From assembly GCA_000004695.1 (NCBI GenBank), contig CM000151.3:4672001-4736000 (forward strand): a DNA stretch of 64,000 nt. The letters are read 5' to 3'. The stretch comes from Dictyostelium discoideum (Eukaryota). Below the pieces are notes generated by a model. That model was given only the letters and a program-made list of their open reading frames with translations, was not told the origin of the DNA and did not search any database. Within the stretch, counting starts at the first letter, position 1. Each line of letters begins with the position of its first letter. The translations under genes were made by a program, and so were the position numbers. Below are positions 27,787 to 37,100 of the stretch, in pieces.

Positions 27787-28859
27787 AATAAATAGTATTT
27801 TATGAAACAATTGAAGATGAATTATTATGTATTGCACATGAAAATGATGTTAGATTAGTATGGGGTACAACATTTCCAATTGAAAATCTTGGTAATTCAA
27901 GTTATATTGAAGAATGGATTCAAGAACAAATTGAAAAAGTTCAAAGTACATTTACAGATGGTTTAAATTTTGATGTTGAAAGTCCAATTACAGATCCAAC
28001 CATCGCTCAACAATATACAGAATTAGTATCAGCAACTAATAAAGCATTTAAAGCAATTAATCCATTCTATCAAATTTCAATCGATGTAGCATGGTCACCA
28101 TCATGCATTGATAAACGTTGTTATGATTATGCTGGTTTAGCTTCAAATTCCGATTTCCTTGTAGCAATGGACTATGATGAGAGAAGTCAAGTTTTTGGTG
28201 AGAAGGTGTGTACTGCTGGTGCAAATTCTTCACCCTCAAATGCCTTGGCTGGTATAAATAATTTTACTGATTTAGGTATTAGCACTGATCAATTGGTAAT
28301 GGGTTTACCATGGTATGGTTATATTTATAAGAATTGTTTAAATGGTGATGAAGCAGGTTTGGAAACTGTTGTTTGTCAAATTGAATCTGTACCATTTAGA
28401 GGTGCAAATTGTTCAGATGCAGCTGGTTCAGAATATGATTATAGTTATTTGGTTCAATTATTACAAGATCAAACTATAAACTCTTCTGCAGTTCAATGGA
28501 ATACTGAATGGCAATCACCTTATTTTAATTATATTGACCCTATAACTGGTAATGTTGATCAAGTTTGGTTTGATAATCCACAATCATTATCAATTAAAGT
28601 TCAATTAGCTCAAAAATTAAATTTAAGAGGTAAATATTTTTATTTTTTTTTGAAAAAAAAAAAAAAGATTATTTAAAAATATTCATTCCAACAATCTTTT
28701 TTTTTTTTTTTTTTTTTTTTTTTTCCAAAACTTATAGGTGTTGCAGTTTGGAATATTGATTTTTTAGATTTTTCAGATCAATACAATTCTCGTCCAATGT
28801 GGGATGCATTAGCTTCTTTTTTCCCACAATCAGCTTCAAGTGAACAATCATTAAATTAA
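27494..28859 (+). CDS. Glycoside hydrolase family 18 di-N-acetylchitobiase (CTBS) homologue, secreted or lysosomal; 3 exons: join(27494..27695, 27796..28629, 28738..28859)
   Basis: Signal peptide 'MRIILLLFLIVFVVAQS'. Collinear with human CTBS: 'CPCDSSYLCEPL' matches 'CPCPEPELCRPI'; 'WNQLTTLAIFYETIEDELLCIAHENDVRLVW' matches 'WSQITTVATFGKYDSELMCYAHSKGARVVL'; 'FDVAWSP..IDKRCYDYAGLA...DFLVAMDYDERSQ' matches 'FDVAWSPKNIDRRCYNYTGIA...DFLFVMSYDEQSQ'; 'LVMGLPWYGY.Y.C......VC.I..VPFRGANCSDAAG' matches 'LVMGVPWYGYDYTC.......C.IAKVPFRGAPCSDAAG'; 'QVWFDNPQSLSIK' matches 'QVWYDNPQSISLK'; 'LRGVAVWNIDFLDFS' matches 'LRGIGMWNANCLDYS'. Both introns start GTAAAT and are phase 1. Confidence 0.85.
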
Positions 28860-28981: not shown

Positions 28982-30637
28982 TTAATTTGTATTTAATTTA
29001 TTAATAACAATTGCAGAGAATACACCAATATCCTCTTGTTGATAAGAATCATTACCAGTATATTCTTGTGGTCTACTTAAGAGACATCTTAAATTACCAT
29101 ATTTAGAACCACAAAATAATATTGTGTGAGGTGTTACTTTATTATTTTTACTTTTATCAGGTTCATTCATAGTTTTATTTGAAACCTTTTCAATGATTAA
29201 TTGATTATCACCTCTATTATTAATTAAGAAGGTAAAAACTTGAACTCTTTCACTGCCAAAATAATTTTTAATTTCATTCCAAATCAAAAGATCTAAACCT
29301 TTCAAATGATTTTCATTAACATTTGATTTATAAAGATGAGAAAGGAATATACCACAATTTACTGATCTTTCATTGATTACATTTTCAAAAATTGAAATCA
29401 TCTTTTGTAAATGTTTTTTATTGGCCTTGATTGAACAATCTTTTTCAGATTCATTCTTATTTTGATAATTTAAAGTTAAGAATTTATCTTTTTCAGAATA
29501 TTCGGTTGGTTCATTTCTATATTCAAAGAAATCATCCATTCTTTTAAAAGTTATAAGTGGTTCATTTTCTTTTCTTTCTTCATTAATAAATAGAATATTA
29601 AATTGTAATACAATTCTAACACCTTTGGTAACTGGAGTAACCGTATGAATACAATCATTATAGAATGCAATCCATTTGAAATCGATTGAATCTTGTAGTT
29701 TATTATCATTTGCTTCAATTTTATAATTAATGGTTGTTTGATCGAATGTATCATTTTCAGAGATTATAAATTCACCACCTTCATATGTATCAACACCTAA
29801 TGGAACAATATAGGTACCAATATGATTTTTAGAATGAATGGTATCGATATGTGGTTGAAAATGACCACCTTCATTATAAATATGAATTTTATATAATTCA
29901 AGATCATAGTTTGTTTTCTTATAAAAGAATTGATTTTCTTTTAATGGATGTTTGAAATCAAATTGATTCATTACTTTATAATCTTTATAATTTTCTGCTT
30001 TTTCTTGGAAAAATGGTACTTTAACTCTATTACCTTCAATATGATAACCTTTTCTAATGTTTTCATCGTAAACTGTGTCAACACCATTTCCAAAACTTGA
30101 TTTCTTTGAAAAACTTTGAATTAAATTTAAATCTGGTTCAAAAATTGTACCACATTCTTTATCATCAATATAAATGTTAAAATCATAATTAACTTCATTT
30201 TCATTTTTAAAAGTTTTCACTTTTTTAAAATCTTTACTTGCTTTTGGATCCTTTGGATGATAATTTTCATTAAAACGAATTGTTTCCTTTGGTATTTTAT
30301 AAGTGCCAGTTAGCAATGATGGAACATCTAATGATGAATAATAAAAACTAATGTCTTTATTTTCTTCGACTCTATAACCAGTTTCATGGTTACTATTAAA
30401 TAATGAATGAATCTTATCTCTAACTTTTAAATATGAATAAATGTAATCATCACCTTTGAAAATATAATCATCTAATTGTAATTTTGGTAATATAAATAAA
30501 TTCCAACTTTTACAAACCAATGAGATTTTACAATAAAAATCAAATTGTTTACCTTCATAAAATGATTCTTGGATTGATAATTTCAAAATTTTTACAAATA
30601 TTAAATTTGGAAAACAAATTGATTTATTATTATTCAT
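28982..30637 (-). CDS. F-box protein with a C-terminal-half 2-oxoglutarate/Fe(II)-dependent dioxygenase domain of the prolyl-4-hydroxylase (P4Hc) type; single exon, 551 aa
   Basis: N-terminal F-box-like motif 'CFPNLIFVKILKLSIQESFYEGKQFDFYCKISLVCKSWNLFILPKL', with the pattern LP-x-[EL]-[IL]-x-x-x-I-L...VCK-x-W. Oxygenase core 'YNEGGHFQPHIDT...GTYIVPLGVDTYEGGEFII' shows the H-x-D metal-binding dyad and the GGE[TF] motif; the distal His and 2OG-binding Arg are 'DCIHTVTPVTKGVRIVLQF'. Confidence 0.65.
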   Translation of the reverse strand: MNNNKSICFPNLIFVKILKLSIQESFYEGKQFDFYCKISLVCKSWNLFILPKLQLDDYIFKGDDYIYSYLKVRDKIHSLFNSNHETGYRVEENKDISFYYSSLDVPSLLTGTYKIPKETIRFNENYHPKDPKASKDFKKVKTFKNENEVNYDFNIYIDDKECGTIFEPDLNLIQSFSKKSSFGNGVDTVYDENIRKGYHIEGNRVKVPFFQEKAENYKDYKVMNQFDFKHPLKENQFFYKKTNYDLELYKIHIYNEGGHFQPHIDTIHSKNHIGTYIVPLGVDTYEGGEFIISENDTFDQTTINYKIEANDNKLQDSIDFKWIAFYNDCIHTVTPVTKGVRIVLQFNILFINEERKENEPLITFKRMDDFFEYRNEPTEYSEKDKFLTLNYQNKNESEKDCSIKANKKHLQKMISIFENVINERSVNCGIFLSHLYKSNVNENHLKGLDLLIWNEIKNYFGSERVQVFTFLINNRGDNQLIIEKVSNKTMNEPDKSKNNKVTPHTILFCGSKYGNLRCLLSRPQEYTGNDSYQQEDIGVFSAIVINKLNTN

Positions 30638-31191: not shown

Positions 31192-34100
31192 TTATTCAAA
31201 TAAATTTTCATTTTCAGGTTGATTTTCTTCATCATCATTTGCTGAAGGAGCCATTTGAGTCCAATTTTGGAAATGAGCAGGTCTATGAGATTCATCATAA
31301 AAGTTTTTAGGATAATCTAATTTCAAACCATAGGTCATATTTGTGGAATGTTTAACACCCATGAAATTATAATTCCAAGAACCACGATCAGGTACCATAT
31401 AGAAACCAAGGAAACGATCGGATAATAACATTTGAACCTTCTCATAGAATTGTGGTTGATAACCTTGATAATTGAGAGAATCTTTATTATTTTTACCCCA
31501 TTCAAAACCACTTGGAGTCAAATGGTAAGCAGTTAGAGTACAAGGCCAAGCCACAGAGACAGAGATGATAACAGTTTTCTCACCATCCCAACTCTTATTG
31601 TCAGACATAATCTTTGAATGAGTGATAACATCTTGTGGTGATAGTTGTGGTAATTCAGTTGGTTGAGTGTGAATCCAACCCAATGGTTCTAAATCTTTGA
31701 GATATTCATGTTCTGGTAATTGATTTGGTACGGTTACATGAACTGGTGTACCCCATTGTGGTGGCATTACAATACAACGAATTTCTTTTACTGATGGATT
31801 ATCGGGTGGTGAGATACCATAACAATAACCCATGATTTGAGTACGAAGATCGGCAATGGTAATGAATTTCTTTAAGATATTCTTTGGGAAAACATAAGTG
31901 AAACCACCAGTTTCTTTAGCGTTATCAGAGTTTACATAGATTTGATTGGTACGTAAATGAAGATTAGTTGCACTGATAGCACGTACACGCCAATCTGTTT
32001 TTGAAGAGAATACTTTTTGTTCATGTGGTGATGTAGCGGTTGTGATAATCTCTTCACCATGAATATTGGTTGAACGAACTGTAACGGCTGTTAAATGAGA
32101 TGCTTCTGTTTTTTGTTTTTCAATCTCTGCGATTTGATCTTCACGTTGTTGTGATGGTGCAGAAATTTCCATACCCAAAATGATATCTCTAATCTCTGAT
32201 TGAGTGAGCGAAGCAACGTTTACATTATTTCTTTTACCAAAATCTGCTAAAATCAAATCTTTCAATGAACCTTCAACGGTTAACCATTCTTGTTCTGTTA
32301 GAGTTGGCCAAATATGATGAGGTTGAGTGATAACATTTTTATTTGGTTTCAATATGATTTTAGTACGTTCTAAATTGACATGAAGTGCACGTAAGATTAG
32401 AATCAAACGAAGGAAAGCAGTGTAAGAATGAATTGTTGATAACCAATCATCATAGATATTGAAGAGTACCATCTTTGGTTCGGTTGCTTTCAAAATGAGA
32501 TCACCAAACTTCTCTACTTTCAAACAAGCTTGGAATGGTAATTGAAGTTCACTACCTTGAATGACGATATTTGGGAAATCTAAAAGATGTACCTCCAATG
32601 GATCCATCATACCTTTACGAGTGGCAATGATTTGTTTTGGTTGTTCTTCCACTGGTAAGGAACGAATTAATGCAGCAACCTCCTCGGCAGTCTTCCATTT
32701 TGCTAATTGACCTAAACGTTTTTGACCTAACCAAACATCGGTATGAATGATCTTGAGGAATAATTGACCAGTACGTGGATTGAAAATGAAAATTGCACCA
32801 TTGATTGGTTTAGTTGTTAAATTACCTTCAAAAGTTTTATGAATGGTTACACGATAAACATTGGAATCATCAACGAACCACATAATTTTATTACTAAATA
32901 ATTCACCAAAGTTTTGACTTGATAAGTAAGGTTCAGTTGGTTCGGATGAATATAATTGTAAACCTTTACGAATACGTTCACGTAGTACATAGAGTGCAGG
33001 ATTGGATTTCAAAATTTTTGCCATTGCTTTTTGAACCAAAGGTTTAACACCAAGGAACCAATTACCAAAGGAACTGTAGATATTGTAAGCCAAATCTAAA
33101 CCAATCAAACAACCAGTTGGTGATGGATACAATGACATACTATCGGTTGTATAATCCAAGAATTTGGCACGACTGTATCTCTCGATATCATGAGAATCGA
33201 AATCACCCCATTTCAATTGAACATCCAACCAATATTGAGTGGTGGTATTATCATAGGTATCACGATTATCATTTAACAATGATGGACGACTAACTTGCCA
33301 TTTATGAGTTGCACGTAAAAGAATATCAGCACATGATGAATTCATTTTATAAGATTTACGTGGATGAATTGCTTCTTTATTTACTACTGATATCTCTAGA
33401 TTATCCAATTCTTGATCGAAAACTTGACATAAATCCATTACTAATGATTCATGAATCTTTTGCCAAAGATGTGCACGGAAAATTTGAATCAATGAAATCT
33501 TTAGTGTTGGAATTTTACCATGCATGAAAATACCTGTTAAATCCAATTGAACTTGGAAACCAACATAAACATTCTTACGATTGATAGTTGGAGACCACCA
33601 AAGTGTGAAACGACGATTTGGAATTTGATTAAGACCTGAACGTTGAGCGTGTGTAAGTTTTTTATATTTCATAGACTCTTCGAAACCTGATGCTTTCTCC
33701 CAAAATAAACCTTCCCAAGTTGGGAAATAAGTACCTTTGAATAGAGTATGCTCTAGAATACCTTCAACACCACCCAATGCTTGAATGATATCTGTACGAT
33801 AATTATTAAGATTCCAAAGTTTACCATCATGACGTTGATTAGTCCACCAGAATGGATTATTCTTTAGGACTTGATATTGTTTCCAATCGGTTCTTACTCT
33901 CCAACCTTTATCATAAGCTAAAGTATGACGACTCTTTTGGAATAATGTATTGATACGTGGTATACCACGATCCCAACTATCTTCAAGATCCTCCAATGTA
34001 AGATTCTTATTTTGTGATTTAGCCTCTTCATATTTGATTGCATATTCTGCCCAAACACGTTGACTATCTTTAATTTCTTGTTCCCATGGTTGAATGTAAC

Positions 34101-37100
34101 GATAAAGATTTGGAATTAATTGATCTTCATCATGACTCATACCACTTGTGAAATGAGTTATACCAGTATCGGTTTGTTTTGAATATTTCAAATCCGATTG
34201 TGGAATCAATACATGACCCATACTTAACATACCTAAACCACCCAACTCCTTTGGTGTATAGAATACCACTGGTGGGAAACGATTTGGCATCTTACTATTC
34301 AATCCAATCTTTACACGAGTTTGAATTTTATTTTCACAACGCACTAAAATATCCAACATTTCACGAGTTGTAACCACCGCCTCACGATAATAAGTCATTA
34401 AACCAATCAATGCTGTATTCCATTTATTTACAATCTTTGTGAATGTTGTTGAACCACTTGCCATGAGGATCATACGAATACGATTTTCAAAACGTTCTTG
34501 TGATTCTGTATCGACCCTAAGGAATGCTTGAGCCGTACGTTCTTTGGTATTAACATTTTGAAGACTCCAAACTGCATCCTTTGGTGCCAATTGATCCAAG
34601 GGTGTACGACATTTTGGAAGTATACGAATATCGAAACCTGCCATATTCATCAATAGATTTGGATTATCTTTACTATAGACCGATACGAATGAATCCTCCC
34701 AATCAATGGTTGTCAATGAACGTGGTAATCTATTTTTAATTTGCCAAAATACTGCTCTACCCAAGTTAACATCATGTTTCATTAAACGCATACGACAATC
34801 ACGTGGCCAACATTTCTTATTGTTATAACCAACCACATTTTCATTGTTTGGATCTGGATGTTCTGACATATACTTTTGAATTAATTTTCTTGCTTCATCC
34901 GCTGTAAATTTATAGAGTACATGAATACGATCAACATAACGACTATACAAACGAATTGGATGGGCGGTTTCAGTTTGAACTGATGGGAATGTAAGGAATG
35001 AATTTGGTAAGTTTGGTGGTCCTGCAAGTGCTGATGCACGTTCTAAACCCAATACTAAAAGATCCAATACCAAACCATAATATTGGAAAATAAATGATGC
35101 AAATTGTAAACCTCTAATTAAACCATAAGAGTTGGTATGATTCATATCCTTATAGTTGATTACTACATTATTCTTACCAGACATATAATCGGCAATATTT
35201 TGATCAACAATTAAACGTAACAAACGATTCATCAAAGTTAAATCCATCTTTTCATAAACTTTACTAAATTGAGTCTCTAATAAAACAACACATTCACCTT
35301 GACTAGTCTCCCAAACTTGATCTAAATTATTAATACCTTGACACCATTTATGAATGAGTACAGGTGGTGGTTCATTATCGGATGGTTTAACCCAATTTGG
35401 AAAGAGTTGACGTTTATCTGCTTCATACCATAGATATTGATCCAAATAGGCATCGGTGATCTTTTCAAATGGATCTACATCATAGATTGGTACTAGATGA
35501 GTGTACATATCCATAAATTCAATACCAACCTCTTTAAAGGTACGTTGAGTGAGTAAATGTCTTTTGATACGAGCTAATGCATCATGAGGATTATCATAAG
35601 CTTGTTCAACCAATGATAACTCCTCACGTTGTGATTGATTTAAACGTGATTTAACACTGTATGCCTCTTTAAGACGTTCCAATGCCAATGTGAGAATTTT
35701 AATATCGTGTTTGTATGAAGTTTGAGGGAATGGAATCGCAGAGAATCTACGTTTCTCCAACCAATGAACAGTGGTGGTATAAATGGCAACAGCTTCCTCT
35801 GCCGATACGTATGGACCATCCTTTAGATAATTATGTTGACGTTCTTGTTCTGCCTTTAACCAAAGTCTAGTTAAACGACCCAAATTCTTTTTACTTGCAG
35901 TTTTATCGATGGTAGCACCACGTTTAATACGTTCACGATTGTAATGAGCTATATTTGTCCACCAATCTGCTTTTGATTTAACATAACGTAGAATCATATT
36001 CTCTATTGGTATTGGTAAACCTGGTACTTTCCATGGGATATTTGATTTCCAACATCTCCAAGCCTCTGAAAGATGTTGTAAGATAATACGTGATTTATTT
36101 GCTTTGATTCCTTCTGGCATCATATCGAGGATATCATGCATTACTGCTGCACGTAATTCATAATCGAAATGAGATTCAACACGTTGTTTAGTGACTGTTT
36201 TGGCCATACCTTTGGTTTGTCTACCTTCGAATTGTCTTGCCAATAGATTTCCAAGCCAACGTTCCAACAAAGGTACTATACCACGTAAAAAGAATAACCA
36301 AACTCTCCACATTGGTGCCCAAAAACCACAACCTGGACCTTTACCAACAGCGCCAGTATTGAAACGATAGTAGATTAAATGTTTCAAATCTTTACACATA
36401 CGAATTTGTCTCATTAAACGATACTTGTATTTATACATACCAGTCAATAGACCCAAATGACTAAATAAATATTGAATAGCATCTGCCAATTGAAAAGCAT
36501 CTGCATCACCTAATCTAAATTTCACATGAACATCAACCACCAATTTAGTTAAACGTAATATCTCTCTACACAAATGGAATGCATTACCAAATCTTGATTT
36601 CTTTCTCTCCTTTGTTGTTAGAGTTTTAATTGGTTTCAAATAGAAATTGTAATCCAAATGTAAATAATTCAAATTCTTTCTATGAATTAATAGATTTAAC
36701 ATATTGTAACCTTGACGACAAACTTGTAAACCTGCCTCTACCCAATCAATCTCTGTAGATTGAAAGAATTTAGTTGCTTTCAATGATTTAAATAAATTTC
36801 TTTTAGTTTGTGCTTTTGGTTTACGATGATGTAATTTATTCAATACATGACATTTCAATAACTTTTGATAACTAACTCTAACTTTAACTGGATGTTCACT
36901 TGGACAATGTTCTTTATACCATGATTTAACTAATGGAATATCCTCTGCTCTTCTAGTTGTACCTGATCTTAATGAAAATGGTCTTGGTGCCCAATATAAT
37001 TGTATACCATTTGCTAAATTATCATGTTCAATCTCTGTTTTTGATAATATTGTTTCAATTTCTTCTGGTAATTGAAATTCATCATCTTCTGTACCATCTT

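Follow-up and report, generated by a model that had tools for sequence, protein, structure and literature searches.

The Dictyostelium discoideum gene DDB_G0274231, encoded on the minus strand of a 64,000-nucleotide stretch of contig CM000151.3 (GenBank assembly GCA_000004695.1, positions 4,672,001 to 4,736,000; hereafter the window), probably specifies an enzyme that uses oxygen, is attached to the SCF (Skp1-cullin-F-box) ubiquitin ligase and had hitherto gone unrecognised. The product joins an Fe(II)/2-oxoglutarate (2OG) oxygenase domain of the prolyl hydroxylase domain (PHD)/prolyl 4-hydroxylase (P4H) class to an N-terminal segment that resembles an F-box, and the account that we on balance favour, drawn from sequence and predicted structure, is that of an active PHD-class oxygenase that would dock to Skp1 through a divergent F-box. 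Dictyostelium is a model organism in which oxygen (O2) controls development via the prolyl hydroxylation of Skp1. An original prediction, made from the nucleotide sequence alone, had described a single-exon open reading frame (ORF) of 551 amino acids (aa) at this position, with a convincing F-box and the complete catalytic signature of the P4H-like 2OG oxygenases. The ORF and the oxygenase were confirmed, while the F-box was sustained in part, and the "oxygen-sensing or substrate-marking module" that the original prediction proposed is something that DDB_G0274231 may be.

By profile, conservation and fold, the assignment of DDB_G0274231 to the P4H/PHD-like branch (PF13640) of the 2OG-Fe(II) oxygenase superfamily is fully supported. 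The sole Pfam family reported for the full-length protein is 2OG-FeII_Oxy_3 (PF13640; E 9.3e-10, 39.8 bits against a gathering cut-off of 27), with no Pfam match to JmjC or Cupin_8, and the predicted signature is complete, with the motifs HFQPHID at residues 259-265, EGGEF at 286-290, CIHTV at 329-333 and KGVRIVLQF at 338-346. An exhaustive HMMER search of 1.84 billion representatives recovered 2537 relatives at E<=1e-3 and 438 at E<=1e-10. Amongst 107 aligned homologues, the iron ligands H263, D265 and H331 are each kept in 106 and R341 in 104, and approximately 20 more positions are near-invariant, including F182, G183, D191, R195, K250, Y254, G257, G258 and F260. The profile of this alignment matched the PKHD-type hydroxylases 3dkq and PiuC in the PDB (E ~1e-4); a phmmer search of the PDB sequences with DDB_G0274231 itself returned no match, the PhyA structure 6T8M included.

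An AlphaFold2 model built on the family alignment (mean predicted local distance difference test score (pLDDT) 77.4; predicted template-modelling score 0.77) is above 90 pLDDT for most of residues 150-350. The double-stranded beta-helix (DSBH) predicted for this region is closest in fold to the prolyl hydroxylases, and its nearest structural neighbours are soluble enzymes of the PHD/P4H type, not JmjC proteins. The catalytic residues (HxD...H...R) might have fallen outside a DSBH oxygenase fold, which would have counted against the original prediction, and both the profile and the AlphaFold2 model place them inside it. All of the catalytic residues are intact and the enzyme is apparently catalytically competent; the status of pseudo-enzyme was considered for DDB_G0274231 and rejected on the same residues.

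The N-terminal element has a proposed layout of three helices with an 8-9-residue loop insertion between the first two (helix 1, NLIFVKILKLS; loop, IQESFYEG; helix 2, KQFDFYCKISLV; helix 3, CKSWNLFILPKL). When the N-terminal 64 aa were scanned in isolation, the only three Pfam matches were to F-box models (F-box-like, E 0.016; F-box, E 0.053; F-box_5, E 0.24), and the corresponding fragment from D. citrinum showed the same sub-threshold behaviour. For profile-profile comparison, a reference alignment of 11 F-boxes was used, all 45 of whose PDB matches were F-box-containing proteins, including Skp2, TIR1, FBXW7, beta-TrCP, Cdc4 and KDM2A/B. A greedier hhalign setting placed residues 7-49 on this reference with a probability of 68.5%, a gap of 9 residues separating helix 1 from helix 2, and none of 200 column-shuffled controls reached the score (24.7 vs a maximum of 18.0). 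Against a Dictyostelium-specific F-box set, compiled from Fig. S3 of Boland et al. 2022 (PMC9485057), the probability was 70% over 42 columns, up to residue 63 and with an 8-residue insertion, and 0 of 150 shuffles reached the score. Because no shuffle in either control attained the hhalign score, the F-box resemblance exceeds chance, and it rests mainly on the segment SLVCKSW. In D. citrinum, D. purpureum and D. dimigraforme, the N-terminal element shows a degree of conservation no lower than that of the remainder of the protein.

A connection to Skp1 emerges from the catalogue of Dictyostelium Skp1 co-immunoprecipitation (co-IP) interactors and F-box-like sequences presented by Boland et al. 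(PMC9485057), in which loops between helices 1 and 2 are explicitly allowed. Two of the proteins in Fig. S3 of that study carry an F-box-like sequence close to that of DDB_G0274231: DDB_G0278939, recovered by vegetative co-IP, with "veg" in the "PhyA enhanced" column and the domain note "beta sheet" (NIQLANILIIKILDYR[LKSLSHNE]LYDFVNSIQIVCKSWNLFTVNKLNLGKYLTK), and DDB_G0286243, recovered by slug co-IP, with a blank in the domain column (NRVLSNITIKILKYS[IKLSLLDNT]HEQFTETLSLVCKSWNLFIIPKLNLSRYRFN). The first sequence is 39% identical (22/56) to residues 6-61 of DDB_G0274231 and the second is 54% identical (26/48, ungapped) to residues 13-60, and in all three proteins helices 1 and 2 are separated by loops of comparable length (8-9 residues). 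The occurrence of nearly the same motif, with a comparable loop, in two proteins that co-immunoprecipitate with Skp1, as listed in that figure, lends indirect support to the F-box assignment.

The extent of the relationship can be gauged from an 835-aa protein of D. dimigraforme (P0005), the N-terminus of which is 84% identical to the DDB_G0286243 motif as printed in Fig. S3. This protein is a homologue of DDB_G0274231, with four matching stretches from the N-terminal element onwards (E 2.2e-44), and it keeps both the N-terminal element and the C-terminal domain, with Q/Q/Q at the alignment columns of H263, D265 and H331. Having lost both iron-binding histidines, it is a probable pseudo-enzyme, and judging from this member the DDB_G0286243-like clade probably consists of pseudo-oxygenases without either histidine. 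The N-terminal element travels with the oxygenase-like scaffold and, by the co-IP results tabulated in PMC9485057, coincides with Skp1 association in at least one paralogue and probably in two. In the annotations of that figure, no oxygenase-like domain was recognised in either interactor.

Several observations weigh against the F-box assignment and against an association of DDB_G0274231 itself with Skp1. All three Pfam scores of the isolated N-terminus are sub-threshold (15.4 vs 24.3, 13.9 vs 20.5 and 11.4 vs 25.5 bits, in the order given above), the full-length protein matches no F-box model at a limit as loose as E<=10, and the N-terminal fragments of D. purpureum and D. dimigraforme have no Pfam F-box match. 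A profile of four N-terminal sequences found no F-box protein in the PDB, its sole match (YvdD) being spurious, and at its default setting hhalign aligned just 13 columns around SLVCKSW to the reference F-boxes, with a probability of 60.6%. The proline of the F-box "LP" pair varies, reading FP, IS, FP and LS in the orthologues and FP or FS within D. discoideum, and AlphaFold2 models residues 1-60 at a pLDDT of 39-63 with two helices, not three. DDB_G0274231 does not appear in the supplement text of PMC9485057, including the F-box alignment of Fig. S3, a statement that covers that text and not table S2. The proposed paralogy of DDB_G0278939 and DDB_G0286243 rests on the N-terminal motif, to which the D. 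dimigraforme protein described above adds in the case of DDB_G0286243. No paper text was found in the literature for any of the three D. discoideum genes.

By the Pfam profile thresholds DDB_G0274231 is not a member of the F-box family, and whether its N-terminal motif scores as an F-box is a borderline matter, the thresholds being missed and hhalign giving 60-70%. Of the F-box that had been called convincing, a shuffle-beating resemblance and the only Pfam matches of the N-terminus have stood; the strength claimed for it has not, with every score sub-threshold and none full-length. Taken together, the sequence evidence for a putative F-box is weak but consistent.

The phylogenetic distribution of the fusion, which had been proposed as a check, is narrow. 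Of the 150 top-ranking representatives of the family, three have a motif of the VCKSW type close to the N-terminus, all of them from Dictyostelium sensu stricto (D. citrinum, D. purpureum and D. dimigraforme), and the F-box-like element is absent from Cavenderia, Synstelium and all of the others; Pfam scans of 30 longer homologues likewise detected no F-box. This distribution, the sub-threshold scores, the fruitless search of the PDB with the N-terminal profile, the 13-column default alignment, the low AlphaFold confidence at the N-terminus and the absence from the supplement text of PMC9485057 (table S2 lying outside that comparison) would all accord with a stand-alone oxygenase, in which the first 60 residues form a helical extension that is specific to the lineage and F-box-like only via LVCKSW. 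Such a protein would be a free cytosolic PHD-like hydroxylase that does not bind Skp1, like the F-box-less majority of the family. This explanation is a substantial contender, though we regard it as unlikely: it leaves aside that the motif, with a loop of similar length, recurs in two proteins listed in PMC9485057 as Skp1 co-IP interactors, that the element is kept in four Dictyostelium species and in a paralogue clade devoid of catalysis, and that no shuffle control reaches the F-box profile score.

A second alternative concerns the substrate. The DSBH may act on a metabolite, in which case any link to Skp1 would control only the abundance of the enzyme, an explanation that overlaps with the one that we favour. 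PF13640 and the PKHD/PiuC-like group include enzymes with unknown or non-protein substrates, and PolD, PasI and halogenases are also found amongst the high-ranking structural neighbours of the DDB_G0274231 model. The fold itself is closest to that of the prolyl hydroxylases, and we consider a small-molecule oxygenase improbable.

The last alternative, a secretory or endoplasmic reticulum (ER) P4H of the collagen type whose moderately hydrophobic N-terminus (ICFPNLIFVKILKL) serves as a signal peptide or membrane anchor, recalls the many P4Hs that are lumenal or type II membrane proteins and is highly improbable, in that the hydrophobic stretch is broken by P, N and K residues, the F-box-less family members begin with hydrophilic sequence and the nearest structural neighbours are soluble and PHD-type. 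A signal peptide is effectively rejected because the same motif lies approximately 100 residues from the N-terminus, behind hydrophilic sequence, in the D. dimigraforme pseudo-enzyme and in a D. discoideum strain variant (P0155).

Under the favoured explanation, an active PHD-class oxygenase docking to Skp1, DDB_G0274231 would encode a cytosolic or nuclear Fe(II)/2OG oxygenase of the PHD/P4H structural class, from a family of which one branch, in Dictyostelium sensu stricto, appears to have gained an N-terminal divergent F-box of approximately 50 residues, in which 8-9 residues are inserted between helices 1 and 2. This element would most likely dock the enzyme onto Skp1, making it an Fbxo-type SCF component; Skp1 binding by DDB_G0274231 is plausible on the strength of its kinship in sequence to the two interactors. 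The predicted substrate is a protein side chain, probably a proline.

What the putative F-box would accomplish can be read in two ways. For JcdI/Fbxo13, the F-box affects the abundance of JcdI rather than its O2-sensitising activity (PMC9485057), and on that precedent a turnover or regulatory handle is slightly favoured for DDB_G0274231; by this analogy the F-box would, with modest probability, chiefly tie the level of the enzyme to the pool of Skp1 modified by PhyA, in line with the conclusion reached for JcdI. Alternatively, it is possible, if somewhat doubtful, that the oxygenase and the C-terminal module act as a true substrate receptor, binding and perhaps also hydroxylating the proteins that the same SCF ubiquitinates. 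A paralogue that has lost catalysis but is associated with Skp1 still retains the scaffold, an indication that the latter is able to act as a binding (receptor) module. A more ambitious proposal, and one that we rate as quite improbable, is that Dictyostelium sensu stricto harbours a small clade of SCF-resident PHD-like hydroxylases that dock to Skp1 via a variant F-box and hydroxylate SCF subunits or SCF-bound substrates in an O2-dependent manner, with an active enzyme and at least one dead paralogue acting as a competing or substrate-trapping receptor; this clade would constitute a second direct O2 input into SCF, parallel to JcdI and to the PhyA-dependent hydroxylation/glycosylation of Skp1.

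The positions of the gene and of its domains and motifs within the window are collected in Table 1.

Table 1. Coordinates in the window of DDB_G0274231 and of the features assigned to its product
Feature	Residues	Window position	Strand	Basis
Complete single-exon coding sequence, 551 aa + stop	1-551	28982..30637	-	Equals DDB_G0274231 / XP_644239.1 / UniProt Q8T294
Putative divergent F-box-like element	7-53	30479..30619	-	Sub-threshold Pfam, hhalign, motif identity to Skp1 interactors
Family-specific N-terminal alpha/beta subdomain	62-125	30263..30454	-	Alignment occupancy and pLDDT
PHD/P4H-type DSBH oxygenase domain	150-350	29588..30190	-	Pfam, family profile, AlphaFold, structural neighbours
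PF13640 match	250-348	29594-29890	-	Pfam
H263-I-D265, proximal iron ligands (HxD)	263-265	29843..29851	-	Read from sequence and conservation
H331 (distal iron ligand) to R341 (predicted 2OG C5-carboxylate binder)	331-341	29615..29647	-	Conservation; aligned to PKHD/PiuC motifs
Conserved family-specific C-terminal alpha/beta domain	401-548	28994..29437	-	Conservation and confident AlphaFold2 model

Beyond what the original prediction had described, DDB_G0274231 possesses a C-terminal domain (residues ~401-548) and an N-terminal subdomain (~62-125), and its core is part of a large oxygenase family of eukaryotes that is uncharacterised. The conserved unit thus exceeds the DSBH and comprises the N-terminal subdomain, the DSBH and the C-terminal domain. 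The N-terminal subdomain is also present in homologues without the F-box-like element; alignment occupancy is 0.64-0.91 at residues 61-110 and drops to 0.08-0.27 at residues 111-130, and the mean pLDDT per 10-residue block is 84-93 at residues 71-120. The C-terminal domain has near-invariant residues at H434, Y436, L445, K446, D449 and T527-G-N-D/E530, without any match in Pfam, and its profile matched nothing amongst the PDB chains.

Named members of the family, all of them annotated as "hypothetical", derive from other Dictyostelia (Cavenderia fasciculata and Synstelium), Thecamoeba, the heterolobosean Willaertia and the basidiomycetes Tulasnella, Leucoagaricus and Suillus, and many further members are metagenomic sequences. 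No relatives turned up when bacterial and archaeal genomes were scanned with a sequence pattern. Within the viral collection a single member was detected (L001 6001-6447, on the 75.5-kb contig IMGVR_UViG_3300028571_001403 classed as viral; 44% identity to the core, E 2e-31), which could be a giant-virus gene or a mis-binned eukaryotic fragment.

Several family members have additional domains. A 547-aa protein (P0145; NCBI whole-genome shotgun set LNAP01) possesses an N-terminal BTB_2 domain of the KCTD type (PF02214; residues 29-118, 35.6 bits against a cut-off of 21.4). Domains of this type can serve as Cul3 adaptors, and the fusion hints at an independent use of the oxygenase module in cullin-RING contexts, with the qualification that BTB_2 can also be a plain oligomerisation domain. 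A 727-aa member (P0050) has an N-terminal SAP domain, and two basidiomycete members (P0039 from Tulasnella, 902 aa; P0082 from Leucoagaricus, 848 aa) contain two PF13640 stretches per protein. In a 751-aa protein of Synstelium polycarpum (P0008), the family core is preceded by approximately 400 residues with a P-loop-like GIGRNGKG segment and a leucine-rich repeat (LRR)-like region, which may be a gene-model fusion.

Since the translation of the ORF is identical to D. discoideum AX4 XP_644239.1, the single-exon model proposed in the original prediction matches the public gene model. The source names for the gene are "hypothetical protein" or "Fe2OG dioxygenase domain-containing protein", an F-box being part of none of them, and as these identical, named entries are public, both the gene model and the oxygenase domain of DDB_G0274231 were already available. 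Both flanks of the gene are AT-rich spacers with 14-18% GC, and there is no second copy, tandem copy or paralogue within the 64-kb window. Adjacent duplicate copies occur, judging from consecutive locus tags, in other D. discoideum strains (P0154/P0157 and P0155/P0156) and in D. purpureum (P0161/P0162); the one copy in the AX4 window, compared to two in the other D. discoideum strains, looks like copy-number variation of DDB_G0274231. One of these strain variants (P0155, 646 aa) has an N-terminal extension of approximately 105 residues.

An 1888-aa ORF with clear character of the spliceosomal protein Prp8 (31192..36858, minus strand) ends approximately 550 bp upstream of the DDB_G0274231 start on the same strand; as listed it begins at an internal TTG, and the real gene is probably longer. 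On the opposite side, a 169-aa ORF (28167..28676, plus strand; local GC higher, at 0.34) converges on the 3' end of DDB_G0274231 and resembles an exon of a GH18 chitinase or chitobiase-like gene (GLPWYGYIY...).

The relevance of DDB_G0274231 lies in the question of further O2 sensors on or near the SCF of Dictyostelium, a concept that has precedent. Residual O2 sensing in phyA-null cells implies additional sensors, with JcdI already implicated (PMC9485057), and a PHD-class oxygenase tied to Skp1 by its own F-box would, if true, be a second and mechanistically different O2-sensor candidate beside JcdI. DDB_G0274231 and its putative paralogues, two in the Skp1 interactome and one a probable pseudo-enzyme, provide a ready genetic test set. 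The analysis further provides a fold and a probable chemistry for Skp1 interactors annotated as "beta sheet" or left blank in Fig. S3 of that study, and delineates a large, uncharacterised oxygenase family of eukaryotes whose C-terminal domain is new.

Amongst known oxygenases, PhyA (the Skp1 prolyl 4-hydroxylase, PDB 6T8M) and the PHD2/PPHD clade share just 13-19% identity with DDB_G0274231 and consist of catalytic domains of ~200 residues, without the N- and C-terminal domains of the family or an F-box. An orthologous relationship to PhyA was rejected on this identity (16-19% in structural alignments), the different architecture and the lack of a phmmer match to 6T8M. The closest relatives of the family by sequence in the PDB are PiuC and 3dkq, and equivalence to the PKHD-type PiuC/YbiX proteins was also rejected, with the NCBIfam PRK05467 models scoring 14-17.5 bits against cut-offs of 143-399. 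OGFOD1/Tpa1 resembles DDB_G0274231 in being P4H-like with an extra C-terminal domain; membership in that family was rejected. There is no Ofd1_CTDD Pfam match, and the C-terminal domain has no PDB sequence match. KDM2A/KDM2B (FBXL11/FBXL10) likewise carry both an F-box and a 2OG oxygenase on a single polypeptide, yet as histone demethylases of the JmjC type they also possess CxxC, PHD and LRR domains, and are homologous to DDB_G0274231 at the superfamily level only. The domain order differs as well, KDM2 having an N-terminal JmjC domain followed by a C-terminal F-box.

The closest comparisons are within D. discoideum. DDB_G0286243 and DDB_G0278939 share nearly the same N-terminal F-box-like sequence with DDB_G0274231, with Skp1 co-IP listed in Fig. 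S3 of PMC9485057 for those two and DDB_G0274231 absent from the supplement text, table S2 aside; DDB_G0274231 keeps all of its catalytic residues, whereas the DDB_G0286243-like clade, as judged from the D. dimigraforme protein that otherwise shares the whole architecture, probably lacks both iron-binding histidines. JcdI/Fbxo13 is an F-box and JmjC dioxygenase with validated Skp1 binding and O2 dependence, for which activity and Km(O2) were measured (PMC9485057). It is a protein of the Fbxo type in which the F-box seems to regulate enzyme level instead of defining a classical receptor. JcdI/Fbxo13 (and JcdH), like DDB_G0274231, has a divergent N-terminal F-box or F-box-like element ahead of a non-heme dioxygenase domain of the Fe(II)/2OG kind, but its catalytic domain is JmjC (JMJD6-like) instead of PHD/P4H-type, and JcdI with its F-box is conserved across protists, while the DDB_G0274231 element is seen only in Dictyostelium sensu stricto. 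The pairing of an F-box with a P4H-type domain, which had struck the original prediction as unfamiliar, was not found in the literature for the PHD/P4H class, a search that did not extend to InterPro architectures; the broader pairing of an F-box with a non-heme dioxygenase is established in D. discoideum by JcdI/Fbxo13 (PMC9485057). DDB_G0274231 does not belong to the F-box/JmjC dioxygenase class of KDM2 and JcdI, its catalytic domain being of another type. The known fusions of an F-box to a 2OG dioxygenase (KDM2A/B and JcdI/JcdH) are all JmjC, and DDB_G0274231 is a variant of that theme with a PHD/P4H-class domain.

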